32,000 bases of DNA from an uncultured archaeon (GTDB lineage: Archaea; Asgardarchaeota; Thorarchaeia; Thorarchaeales; Thorarchaeaceae), in NCBI GenBank assembly GCA_964354495.1, contig CAYHAA010000001.1, forward strand, positions 555,010 through 587,009, written 5' to 3'. Positions 16,510 to 18,486 of the stretch are shown one piece after another. Positions within the stretch are counted from its first letter, which is position 1. Each line of letters opens with the position of its first letter. The notes beneath the pieces are model-generated. The model searched no databases and was not told where the DNA came from. It worked only from the letters and a program-made list of their open reading frames with translations. The position numbers were made by a program, and so were the translations under genes.

Positions 16510-16926
16510 CTACTCGCGTGGCGGCTTTGGTATTTCAGTCAAGGTGATAATATCCTCAATCCATTTCGCCAGTTCTTGACCAATCGATTCAATGTACTGC
16601 AGCAATGATTCAGCGTACTTAGTCAGATGCTGCTGTTCAAGACTCTTGGCCTTCTCATTGAATTCCTTAATCCGTTTTGGCAATCCTATTGACCATCTAC
16701 TTATCATCAGTTCTGCCTTTCTATCACTGAGGACCTTCTTGGCGATTTTCTTCTTTCGACTAAGGTCAACAAGCTCTTCCAACAACCTTTGAACACCAAT
16801 GGTTGCTGCTACTAGCCCCTTGGCATCTATCTTGGATTCCTTATCTCTGCTGGTATAGTAGACTTGCTTTAGATCTCTCTTCGCAGCAACTACACTGGAG
16901 AGGAGCTTCAATAATTCGTGAGCCAT
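16510..16926 (-). CDS. Hypothetical all-alpha protein
   Basis: 138-aa ORF with ATG start and amphipathic helices; no recognised motif. Confidence 0.7.
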   Translation of the reverse strand: MAHELLKLLSSVVAAKRDLKQVYYTSRDKESKIDAKGLVAATIGVQRLLEELVDLSRKKKIAKKVLSDRKAELMISRWSIGLPKRIKEFNEKAKSLEQQHLTKYAESLLQYIESIGQELAKWIEDIITLTEIPKPPRE

Positions 16927-16980
16927 GATGCCTTCATTCCATCCTCGAACGTTTTAAGGTCTATGTTTTTTCAGCTGCCT

Positions 16981-17634
16981 TCAAACGGCTGAGTAGTTGC
17001 ATTCTCCACTTGTAGAAAACGGACATGCTGTGCACTTAGTTTCACTAGGTGATGCTCTAGGGAGCCGTTTGTCGTACCAGACCTCATCAAGCCTTTTCAG
17101 ATGCATTCGAATCTCATCAGGACAGAATTTTCTCTTGAAGACTCTTGCATCTCCACAGTTCCAGCAGTTTCTTCCTGGTCTATCTTGAAGGCACTGTTTC
17201 GCAGTGTCCTGAAGGCAATACACAATGACGAGTCTAGCTGACCTACAGGAGACTCCACTCTCCGCCAAAGCAAGTGAATACAATCCTGCTTGGAAAAGAT
17301 CCTCCGGCTTCATCTTGCTCGGCAGATATTTGATAGGGAACTTGTGCTCAATCAGAGCGTCCAGAATCGGTGCGTCTTCCCAGTGCAGAACTGCACTATC
17401 GAACCTGCCAATGAACCGATGAGCAAATGATCTCACCTGCTCTTTGTTGAACAGGTAATACTGACCTCTATTGGGTTGACTTGGCTGCAGTGAGAGAAAC
17501 TCGGTAAGGCTCCAGGGAGCTTTCTTTGCCCTCTTGATAGATGGCCACGCTGGACCTAGACTGAAGATGGATCTCCTGAGCGATAATATGGAAACAATCA
17601 CGATGAGGAGCGTGAATGCCAAAATGCTCAGCAA
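16981..17634 (-). CDS. Cas4-like PD-(D/E)xK nuclease, C-terminal half, with N-terminal transmembrane anchor
   Basis: TM helix at residues 1-19; motif II IGRFD, motif III IEHK, QxxxY (QAGLY) and terminal CxxC-x7-C (CTAC..EC). It lacks the N-terminal Fe-S Cys and the GxxxH motif. Confidence 0.85.
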   Translation of the reverse strand: MLSILAFTLLIVIVSILSLRRSIFSLGPAWPSIKRAKKAPWSLTEFLSLQPSQPNRGQYYLFNKEQVRSFAHRFIGRFDSAVLHWEDAPILDALIEHKFPIKYLPSKMKPEDLFQAGLYSLALAESGVSCRSARLVIVYCLQDTAKQCLQDRPGRNCWNCGDARVFKRKFCPDEIRMHLKRLDEVWYDKRLPRASPSETKCTACPFSTSGECNYSAV

Positions 17635-17644
17635 CTATTCCATT

Positions 17645-17980
17645 TCACCACCATACTATCCAAATGATACCAAGGACGACTACTGCAACTATTACAAGGA
17701 TTGTCATCCATTGAGTGCCTTCTGGCTCATGAGTCCTAATTGTGGACACTAGATTATGGAGCATTGTGCCATCCATGCTAGCTTTGGTGACTGCCTTACC
17801 CCACCTTTGTACTAGGTGCAGTCTGTACTCACATTGAAATTGAGTTCTAAGTTCAGAGACTTCTCTAAATCTTGAGAAGGACGTTCGTTCATCTTCTGTA
17901 AGCCGCAACTTGATTCGGTCGATAGTCTCGTACGACCCTTGAAAAGGGGCACACACGCAGAGGCGCAAGTTCCGAACCAA
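17645..17980 (-). CDS. Cas4-like nuclease, N-terminal half, with C-terminal transmembrane anchor
   Basis: VSELRTQFQCEYRLHL (Cas4 S-x-L..C..L pattern) and SMDGTMLH (GxxxH), followed by a 20-residue TM helix ending WW-stop. The start codon is uncertain (TTG 17980, 17968 or 17908). Confidence 0.7.
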   Translation of the reverse strand: MVRNLRLCVCAPFQGSYETIDRIKLRLTEDERTSFSRFREVSELRTQFQCEYRLHLVQRWGKAVTKASMDGTMLHNLVSTIRTHEPEGTQWMTILVIVAVVVLGIIWIVWW

Positions 17981-17990
17981 ACACTAGATG

Positions 17991-17999
17991 CTTTTATAT
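17991..17999. promoter_or_regulatory. Putative TATA box between the divergent Cas4-like and AbrB/ACT genes
   Basis: CTTTTATAT; reads TATAAAAG on the minus strand. Confidence 0.35.
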
Positions 18000-18063
18000 T
18001 CGAGTTTTGGATGAATTCACAAACAGGATTTCACTCTGGAGAAAAAGGGTGAGTGGTGATTAA

Positions 18064-18486
18064 ATGTCAGAGGATTCCTACGAAGGAGCAACAGCTGGAA
18101 GAGTACTCGTGTTTGGTAGTAGCGGTTCCGTAAAATTCCCAATTGCTTTCAAGAATGCTATGGGAACGGATCGCGGCTTGATGGTGCTCGTGCATAAAGA
18201 CCGACTCATCAAGATTTTCCCTCTAGATAGTCACGAGGTGCTCTTCTTGAGTCTCGAGATTGGGAAACTCAGTAATGACTTTCTCACAAAACTGTCCCAA
18301 ATCTTCAAGAGAGCTGGACTTGTCGATCTCCTATTCTCAACTGGGGTCTGCCTTCGAGGAACGCGGTGTTTCTACGAATGCTACTTCAATCCGAGCCAAC
18401 TCAGTTCCGATATGGATGAGCTTGAGAGTTCTCTGAAAGTTCTTGATGGAGTTCAGAGAGTTCTGATTCAGAAGGTAGAAGCATAG
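18064..18486 (+). CDS. Putative AbrB-like (swapped hairpin) plus ACT domain regulator
   Basis: N-terminal RVLVFGSSGSVKFPIAFKNAMG resembles the AbrB/SpoVT pattern; the C-terminal region (DFLTKLSQIFKRAG...LKVLDGVQRV) has an ACT-like pattern. Confidence 0.55.
   Translation: MSEDSYEGATAGRVLVFGSSGSVKFPIAFKNAMGTDRGLMVLVHKDRLIKIFPLDSHEVLFLSLEIGKLSNDFLTKLSQIFKRAGLVDLLFSTGVCLRGTRCFYECYFNPSQLSSDMDELESSLKVLDGVQRVLIQKVEA

Follow-up and report, generated by a model that had tools for sequence, protein, structure and literature searches.

Two adjacent Thorarchaeota genes predicted to encode the subunits of a membrane-tethered, EXO5/Cas4-like Fe-S nuclease

Introduction

The iron-sulfur (Fe-S) 'staple' of Cas4 and EXO5 is also carried by Dna2 and AddB, and every such nuclease that we know of is a single domain whose N- and C-termini are tied to each other by the cluster. 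Here, we describe a pair of adjacent genes on the minus strand of a 32,000-nucleotide (nt) stretch of DNA, called the window below, from an uncultured archaeon of the Thorarchaeaceae in the Asgardarchaeota (GenBank assembly GCA_964354495.1, contig CAYHAA010000001.1, positions 555,010 to 587,009). We consider it likely that the pair encodes the two subunits of one membrane-tethered Fe-S nuclease in the EXO5/Cas4 branch of the PD-(D/E)xK superfamily, and that both chains are needed. Literature searches turned up no account of a Cas4/EXO5 nuclease that is split or membrane-anchored; the words 'transmembrane' and 'split' do not occur in a Cas4 phylogenomics paper.

The nuclease domains of MGME1, Dna2 and AddB/AdnAB have the PD-(D/E)xK fold in common with the pair, and none of them is split or membrane-anchored; MGME1 has no cluster, and Dna2, AddB and AdnAB are fused to helicases. 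EXO5, or Exonuclease V (PF09810; human EXO5, PDB 7LW7-7LWA; yeast Exo5), has the same fold as the pair and the same order of motifs, i.e., an N-terminal Cys, G..H, D, E-x-K, Q-x3-Y and W-x-x-x-R-x-P ... C-x2-C-x(n)-C. In EXO5, the 4Fe-4S region joins the N- and C-terminal Cys, and single-stranded DNA (ssDNA) enters near the Fe-S region and comes out beneath a crossover helix (PMC8710748). Unlike EXO5, the pair consists of two polypeptides, places two transmembrane (TM) helices between the His helix and the core, has a C-x2-C-x7-C spacing and an additional invariant Cys4 insert, does not match PF09810, and is archaeal and restricted to Thorarchaeota.

Cas4 (PF01930; SSO0001, PDB 4IC1; Cas4-Cas1-Cas2 complexes 7MI4 and 8D3L) provides the best structural matches to the pair. 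Like the pair, it has one N-terminal and three C-terminal Cys and a His/Asp/Glu metal site (PMC12501428); in SSO0001, His62 ligates Mn2+ along with Asp99 and Glu113 (PMC12501428, citing Lemak 2013). Solo-Cas4 resembles the pair in being encoded apart from CRISPR loci (PMC5704561). The pair differs from Cas4 in that PF01930 is unmatched, cas1 is missing from the genome, and the protein is split and carries membrane anchors. The nearest sequence relatives are soluble single-chain archaeal EXO5/Cas4-like nucleases (P0095-P0104), whose motifs are collinear with those of the small and large proteins taken together. Unlike the pair, they are formed by one chain of 214-268 amino acids (aa) without a TM segment.

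Results

The pair consists of a small open reading frame (ORF; 17645-17980) and a large ORF (16981-17634), which lie 10 nt apart in different frames.

17645..17908, minus strand: small subunit gene, probably 87 aa from TTG 17908; the longest ORF, from TTG 17980, has 111 aa
16981..17634, minus strand: large subunit gene, starting at TTG 17634 (217 aa; relatives have 220 aa)

An initial annotation, made from the sequence of the window, had read the two ORFs as a Cas4-like Fe-S nuclease split into two genes. The ORF listing and translation reproduced both ORFs and placed all of the quoted motifs where they had been reported, and these residues proved to be invariant in relatives.

We assessed homology through single-chain relatives of the large protein. 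In an exhaustive HMMER pass over 1.84 billion representatives, the large family comprised approximately 22 clusters below 1e-10. The next tier (E ~1e-4) consisted of the soluble single-chain proteins, among them a Heimdallarchaeota 'PD-(D/E)XK nuclease family protein' and a Desulfurococcales protein, which show weak to moderate Pfam Exo5, PDDEXK_1 and Cas_Cas4 matches, at or near the cut-off. Eleven single-chain relatives were aligned with no sequence of the pair among them (alignment A3), and A3 was compared with both families using hhalign. The small family matched A3 with a probability of 91% and an E-value of 9e-7 (small residues 38-80 on relative residues 31-73), and the large family with a probability of 99.3% and an E-value of 1.6e-20 (large residues 60-217 on relative residues 94-246); that is, the two proteins align to A3 in collinear order. 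When A3 was used for a six-frame search of 86 genomes, the large gene was found in 67 of them, at model positions ~100-255, and the adjacent small gene in some 40, at ~30-70, with two weak matches elsewhere. In terms of single-chain EXO5/Cas4-like nucleases, the data support homology of the small gene to their N-terminal Cys/His segment and of the large gene to the remainder. The similarity of the upstream ORF to an EXO5/Cas4-type N-terminus, on which the initial annotation depended, was recovered (9e-7 to A3), and this ORF adjoins the large gene in the family genomes.

A3 matched human EXO5 at 7e-14, across the N-terminal Cys segment, D/E-x-K, Q-x3-Y and the C-terminal Cys triad, and Cas4 SSO0001 at 0.031. 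Therefore, the pair is EXO5-like within the Cas4/PDDEXK_1 clan, rather than Cas4 proper. Profile similarity to EXO5 is transitive via A3 (1.6e-20 and 9e-7, then 7e-14). The reading of a split Fe-S nuclease held, although EXO5 (PF09810) is nearer than the Cas4 proper named in the initial annotation. EXO5 PF09810 was not matched above its gathering score, and Cas4 PF01930 was matched neither by the window proteins nor in the genome; among 21 large-family members, Pfam gave only weak matches to PDDEXK_1 (three members) and Cas_Cas4 (two members).

The small subunit is ordered as a soluble N-terminal part, a linker of ~15 residues, a C-terminal TM helix and the stop.

17813..17866, minus strand: Cys-helix motif R-E-V-S-E-L-R-T-Q-F-Q-C-E-Y-R-L-H-L, nearly invariant across relatives, containing C50
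17756..17770, minus strand: G-T-x-L-H motif (G71, H75), with G71, L74 and H75 invariant
17654..17710, minus strand: C-terminal TM helix (tail anchor), 19-residue Kyte-Doolittle mean 2.95 (2.6-3.1 in relatives)

The invariant residues of the small protein, in the numbering of the 111-aa ORF, are R39, V41, S42, L44, R45, Q47, F48, C50, E51, Y52, L56, G71, L74 and H75. The Cys-helix segment aligns with the N-terminal Cys segment of the single-chain relatives, which in turn aligns with that of human EXO5, and C50 (Cys26 in 87-aa numbering) is proposed as the first ligand of a 4Fe-4S cluster. G71 and H75 align with the nearly invariant G64 and H68 of the single-chain relatives; we propose H75 as a His ligand of the catalytic metal. 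A profile search of the PDB with the small family returned matches at chance level only.

The large subunit begins with its TM helix, followed by a basic linker, the PD-(D/E)xK core and a C-terminal Cys triad.

17578..17634, minus strand: N-terminal TM helix of the large subunit, predicted N-out/C-in
17278..17400, minus strand: catalytic motifs, D79 (17398-17400), E96-H-K98 (17341-17349) and Q115-A-G-L-Y119 (17278-17292)
17155..17217, minus strand: extra Cys set C140-x7-C148-x8-C157-x2-C160, invariant, between two core strands
16999..17034, minus strand: C201-x2-C204-x7-C212, invariant, proposed 4Fe-4S ligands 2-4

D79, E96, K98, Q115 and Y119 are invariant among the 21 large-family members, and D79, E96-x-K98 and Q115-x3-Y119 align with the D, E-x-K and Q-x3-Y columns of the single-chain relatives. 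Eight Cys are invariant (C130, C140, C148, C157, C160, C201, C204 and C212). The initial annotation had named only C201, C204 and C212; these three are invariant as described, but they are part of a larger set. They align with the C-x2-C-x5-C of the single-chain relatives and with the triad of human EXO5, and are proposed as ligands 2-4 of the cluster. The C140/C148/C157/C160 set, which may form a second metal site, has no counterpart in most single-chain relatives; at that spot, P0095 carries a Cys-rich insert of a different kind.

An AlphaFold2 (AF2) model of the large subunit had a mean confidence (predicted local distance difference test, pLDDT) of 83. Foldseek placed Cas4 8d3l (E 4.8e-4), SSO0001, MGME1, EXO5, Dna2 and AdnAB at the top of its ranking, so that the large half found the Cas4 and PD-(D/E)xK structures that the initial annotation had led us to expect. 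Pairwise comparisons with VIA-align, giving the Z-score and the root-mean-square deviation (rmsd), were as follows.

Cas4 7mi4: Z 10.1, rmsd 4.2 Å, 122 residues aligned
MGME1: Z 9.2, rmsd 3.0 Å, 111 residues aligned
EXO5: Z 7.7, rmsd 6.0 Å, 135 residues aligned

AdnAB (Z 8.0), Dna2 (Z 5.3) and lambda exonuclease were also matched. The large subunit thus shows both the core fold and the D...(D/E)-x-K signature (invariant D79 and E96-x-K98) of the RecB-like branch of the PD-(D/E)xK superfamily. The structural alignments begin at Cas4 residue 54-63, and in SSO0001 at residue 63, just past the N-terminal Cys and His62; the small gene supplies the stretch that is missing. Thus, the proposed cluster site and the active site are both composites of the two chains.

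Each half carries a putative membrane anchor of its own, as the initial annotation had noted: hydropathy shows one hydrophobic helix of ~19-21 residues at the C-terminus of the small protein and one at the N-terminus of the large protein. With a 19-residue window, the Kyte-Doolittle maxima of both families lie at 2.2-3.2 in every member except P0037 (1.6), a large-family member truncated at the N-terminus. The small protein has 0-2 residues after the helix, which would make it tail-anchored. The large protein of most members opens with a stub of three residues, none of them Lys/Arg, followed by the TM helix and then by 1-6 (mostly 2-4) Lys/Arg in 15 residues. Because of this distribution of Lys/Arg around the helices, the positive-inside rule suggests that both soluble parts are cytoplasmic. 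Approximately 90 residues (linker-TM and TM-linker, with a conserved A-P-W-S-L-x-E-F-L segment) stand where the single-chain relatives have ~20.

The complex prediction for the 87-aa and 217-aa proteins scored 0.84, compared with 0.01 for the best control, passing a mark that 51 of 78 solved complexes and 2 of 108 mismatched pairs also attained; this pass may reflect the likeness of the domain halves to solved Cas4/EXO5 structures. Three runs shared at least 75% of contacts, with a partner pLDDT of ~70. The predicted interface includes small-subunit residues 11-32 (with Cys26) and 50-55 (with His51), in 87-aa numbering, and large-subunit residues 73-79, 97-101, 110-119, 178-187 and 200-214, including 200, 204-206 and 211-212 of the Cys-triad region. 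That is, the four Cys (C50 of the small protein; C201, C204 and C212 of the large protein) are all present and invariant, are distributed over two chains, and fall in the predicted interface. Together with the strict co-occurrence and co-loss of the two genes described below, the prediction argues for the heterodimer that the initial annotation had suggested.

We then considered whether the two genes could be one gene. Two separate ORFs, rather than the single polypeptide of EXO5/Cas4 Fe-S nucleases, were found in 44 of 44 fetched loci, with the large frame offset from the small frame by +1 in 28 loci, +2 in 15 and 0 in one. The small-gene stop lies 1-10 nt before the large-gene start or overlaps it by 4 nt as ATGA/GTGA, and it is TGA in 42 of the 44 loci, usually inside a GGTGA word that resembles an archaeal Shine-Dalgarno site. 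This arrangement indicates that the small and large genes look translationally coupled. At 17645-17651 of the window, the terminal Trp/Gly codon of the small gene and its TGA stop make up the GGTGA word.

17632..17647, minus strand: junction, consisting of TGA 17645-17647, one base, ATG 17641-17643, GAA, TAG 17635-17637 and TTG 17632-17634

One rival explanation takes the break for an artefact, or the locus for a recent pseudogene, in which an assembly error or frameshift disrupted a single Cas4-like gene. The frames one base apart, the gap of only 10 nt and the TAG in codon 3 of the ancestral large ORF would fit such an event in this genome, but the same layout recurs in 44 loci and 14 genera with different offsets, each gene is present in 69 of 85 related genomes, and both products retain their invariant residues at 30-50% identity. 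Moreover, an independent 16-kb contig from another study covers 16900-18100 with 14 substitutions and no indel, and no fused relative was found either in the HMMER pass or among 5.8 billion proteins in a word-indexed search, whose length windows admit fusions only for the large-protein query. The comparative data have already refuted this explanation, to which we assign next to no probability; they also bear out the view of the initial annotation that the break is not a single indel. We regard it as only marginally more credible, and still extremely unlikely, that programmed frameshifting or stop-codon bypass joins the ORFs into a single-chain nuclease with an internal TM hairpin. The very short spacing and the TGA stop in 42 of the 44 loci would suit recoding. 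However, the required shift differs between genomes, and therefore no single frameshift or recoding mechanism fits; in addition, a large-gene start preceded by the GGTGA word is conserved, ATGA/GTGA overlaps are typical of coupled separate genes, and conservation of a slippery site was not seen.

The large protein of relatives starts with M-(E/Q/D/N)-Q-L-L, and the corresponding ancestral ATG in the window is 17641-17643. Codon 3 of this ancestral ORF is TAG (17635-17637) in the window; it is CAG (Gln) in contigs of two other studies, in which position 17637 of the + strand is G, and likewise in all relatives. The TAG is either a strain-specific nonsense change or a base error. With the TAG as read, the large subunit in this genome must start at TTG 17634, three residues short, within the outward-facing stub. 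The initial annotation had regarded both frames as closed at the junction; TGA and TAG are both present, although the TAG is a change peculiar to this strain, or an error.

Homologues of the small protein are 84-89 aa long and begin at the equivalent of TTG 17908; therefore, the small product is probably 87 aa rather than the 111 aa implied by the full span of 17645-17980 in the initial annotation, which exists as an ORF. The 111-aa start is also disfavoured because a TATA-like sequence would lie only 12 nt before TTG 17980.

17992..17999, minus strand: TATA-like ATATAAAA, read from the sequence, 5' of the pair in an 83-bp divergent gap

ATATAAAA might serve the small-large unit as its promoter. 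In the database, the genes of this genome are called with other starts, namely GTG 17601 for the large protein (206 aa), which halves the TM helix, and GTG 17956 for the small protein (103 aa); each of these conflicts with the family alignments.

Distribution was assessed using six-frame searches of 400 genomes of the phylum, of which 85 belong to one family. The large gene was found in 69 of the 85, and the other ~315 genomes gave only three weak, partial matches. The small gene was likewise found in 69 of the 85, in the same genomes except for contig-end or decayed cases (G316, G392), and always directly upstream of the large gene. The 14 genera carrying the pair show one syntenic order throughout: PheRS-beta, PheRS-alpha, an aRF1-family gene, a 138-aa coiled-coil gene, large, small, a divergent 140-aa gene, VTT/DedA, CpXC and inositol-phosphate synthase. 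The pair is jointly absent from genera g15 and g3 and genomes G341 and G392, with the flanking synteny intact. In three genomes of g15 and g3, clean gaps of 114-198 nt replace the pair, and remnants were located in the other two genomes.

L050 5871-6011, genome G392: small-gene remnant, residues 2-48
L051 1263-1325, genome G341: large-gene remnant, last 22 residues

The pair is inherited vertically and can be dispensed with, its two genes being absent or lost jointly. A six-frame search with A3 found no single-chain substitute in the genomes without the pair, nor a counterpart of the single-chain relatives in any genome of the family; the pair is the sole EXO5-like member in its genome. Neither Cas1 nor Cas_Cas4 was matched anywhere in the genome (3.3 Mb, 97.7% complete), and the pair lies among housekeeping genes without linkage to cas1/cas2 or a CRISPR array, in agreement with the CRISPR-independent role proposed in the initial annotation.

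Two neighbours were considered as partners and rejected. The 138-aa coiled-coil gene (16510-16926, downstream on the same strand) is not an obligatory third partner; it occurs in all 16 genera and stays where the pair is deleted. Its product was assigned to no family, with only sub-threshold Nsp1_C and MobC_2 matches. The divergent 140-aa gene (18064-18486) is likewise retained where the pair is gone; it has no Pfam match, is 60-97% identical across the family, and is fixed at the locus with or without the pair.

In the word-indexed search, the large protein had 57 relatives of 185-243 aa, and the small protein had 121 clusters of relatives of 70-105 aa. Named relatives of the small subunit are all 'hypothetical protein' entries from Thorarchaeota or Promethearchaeota, and those of the large protein are Thorarchaeota 'hypothetical protein' entries except for two JGI entries labelled Cas4. 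Across 185,579 species genomes, 54 two-gene loci were found, labelled Thorarchaeota or, generically, Asgard or 'uncultured archaeon', with one Hermodarchaeota. The similar layout in some Chloroflexota that the initial annotation had mentioned did not appear among them. As a lead only, the Atlas showed a Chloroflexota-rich PDDEXK_1 cluster as a feature neighbour.

Discussion

We propose that the pair arose from a single-chain ancestor that was interrupted by two TM helices, which follow its His-bearing N-terminal helix and precede the first strand of the core, and that the gene was cut in the outside loop, 4-5 residues long, of the would-be TM hairpin. The small subunit would be tail-anchored with its N-terminus in the cytoplasm, giving the 4Fe-4S cluster its Cys ligand 1 and the active site its metal-ligand His, and the large subunit would be anchored N-out/C-in, giving D79, E96-x-K98, Q-x3-Y and Cys ligands 2-4. 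Each chain alone would be unable to form the cluster site or a full active site, so that assembly of the coupled products, presumably on the cytoplasmic face of the membrane, would be required for activity. Judging from its family, the assembled protein may be a metal-dependent nuclease that acts on ssDNA ends near the membrane independently of CRISPR. As for its role, our best guess is an accessory one, in which DNA on its way into or out of the cell is trimmed or destroyed.

Several observations weigh against this proposal. Neither window protein had a Pfam or NCBIfam match even at an E-value of 10, and the family placement therefore leans on profile-profile and fold comparison; the direct match of the large-family profile to EXO5 has an E-value of only 0.079. 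The confident contacts in the predicted complex include neither TM helix, and hence not the helix pairing assumed in the initial annotation. The TAG at codon 3 in this genome forces a TTG start or may impair translation of the large subunit. In addition, the neighbourhood contains no pointer to DNA uptake or defence, and at least four losses of the pair have occurred, which leaves the proposed role a guess.

A serious rival to DNA-end trimming at the membrane is a role in repair or maintenance. In this case, the heterodimeric nuclease would be real but would serve chromosome maintenance, dealing with breaks, flaps or stalled forks in membrane-attached DNA, much as EXO5, DNA2 and MGME1 do in eukaryotic replication and repair. 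The nearest characterised relative, EXO5, is an ssDNA exonuclease of fork restart and repair (PMC8710748). Moreover, the locus is fixed and vertically inherited amid housekeeping genes (PheRS, the aRF1-family gene) rather than in a defence island, and it encodes the only member of the EXO5-like nuclease family in the genome. We nevertheless consider this role rather doubtful: the pair is dispensable, being missing from four or more lineages (two of which retain remnants), all of them devoid of a single-chain substitute; repair nucleases of the EXO5/Cas4 family are not known to have a membrane tether; and no helicase or repair partner is encoded nearby. Far less probable is the alternative that the catalytic parts face outward, in which case the pair would be an extracellular membrane-bound nuclease that scavenges environmental DNA. 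Outward-facing membrane-bound nucleases exist in bacteria, and Thorarchaeota are sediment heterotrophs (PMC9723677). However, the positive-inside rule points to the cytoplasm, with Lys/Arg following the TM helix of the large subunit and nothing following that of the small subunit, and the small subunit has no signal peptide that would export its N-terminal 65 residues. Known Fe-S nucleases of the EXO5/Cas4 family are intracellular.

If the pair is a membrane-tethered nuclease of two subunits, a cluster site and an active site would each be shared by two membrane-pinned chains, an arrangement that is stable across a whole Asgard family. It would offer a natural test of the cluster as an assembly latch between subunits and of the effect of a membrane tether on a DNA-end nuclease. 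We also put forward a more speculative idea, which we think improbable as it stands: the arch through which ssDNA threads would be closed only by the Fe-S cluster on one side and by the lipid bilayer on the other, forming an openable gate, and the pair would be the nuclease of an unrecognised Asgard route of DNA entry, exit or surveillance. Assembly around ssDNA lacking a free end would become possible for such an enzyme, as would docking beneath a membrane DNA channel.

The analysis corrects the annotation of approximately 70 genomes, in which both genes are now 'hypothetical protein' save for the two JGI 'Cas4' labels on large homologues. Eukaryotic EXO5 is the nearest characterised relative of the pair, and single-chain relatives occur in Heimdallarchaeota; these relationships may bear on the origin of EXO5. 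The single-chain archaeal relatives (P0104 and A3, from Heimdallarchaeota, Desulfurococcales and metagenomes) themselves match human EXO5 at 7e-14, an observation that may bear on an archaeal origin of EXO5.

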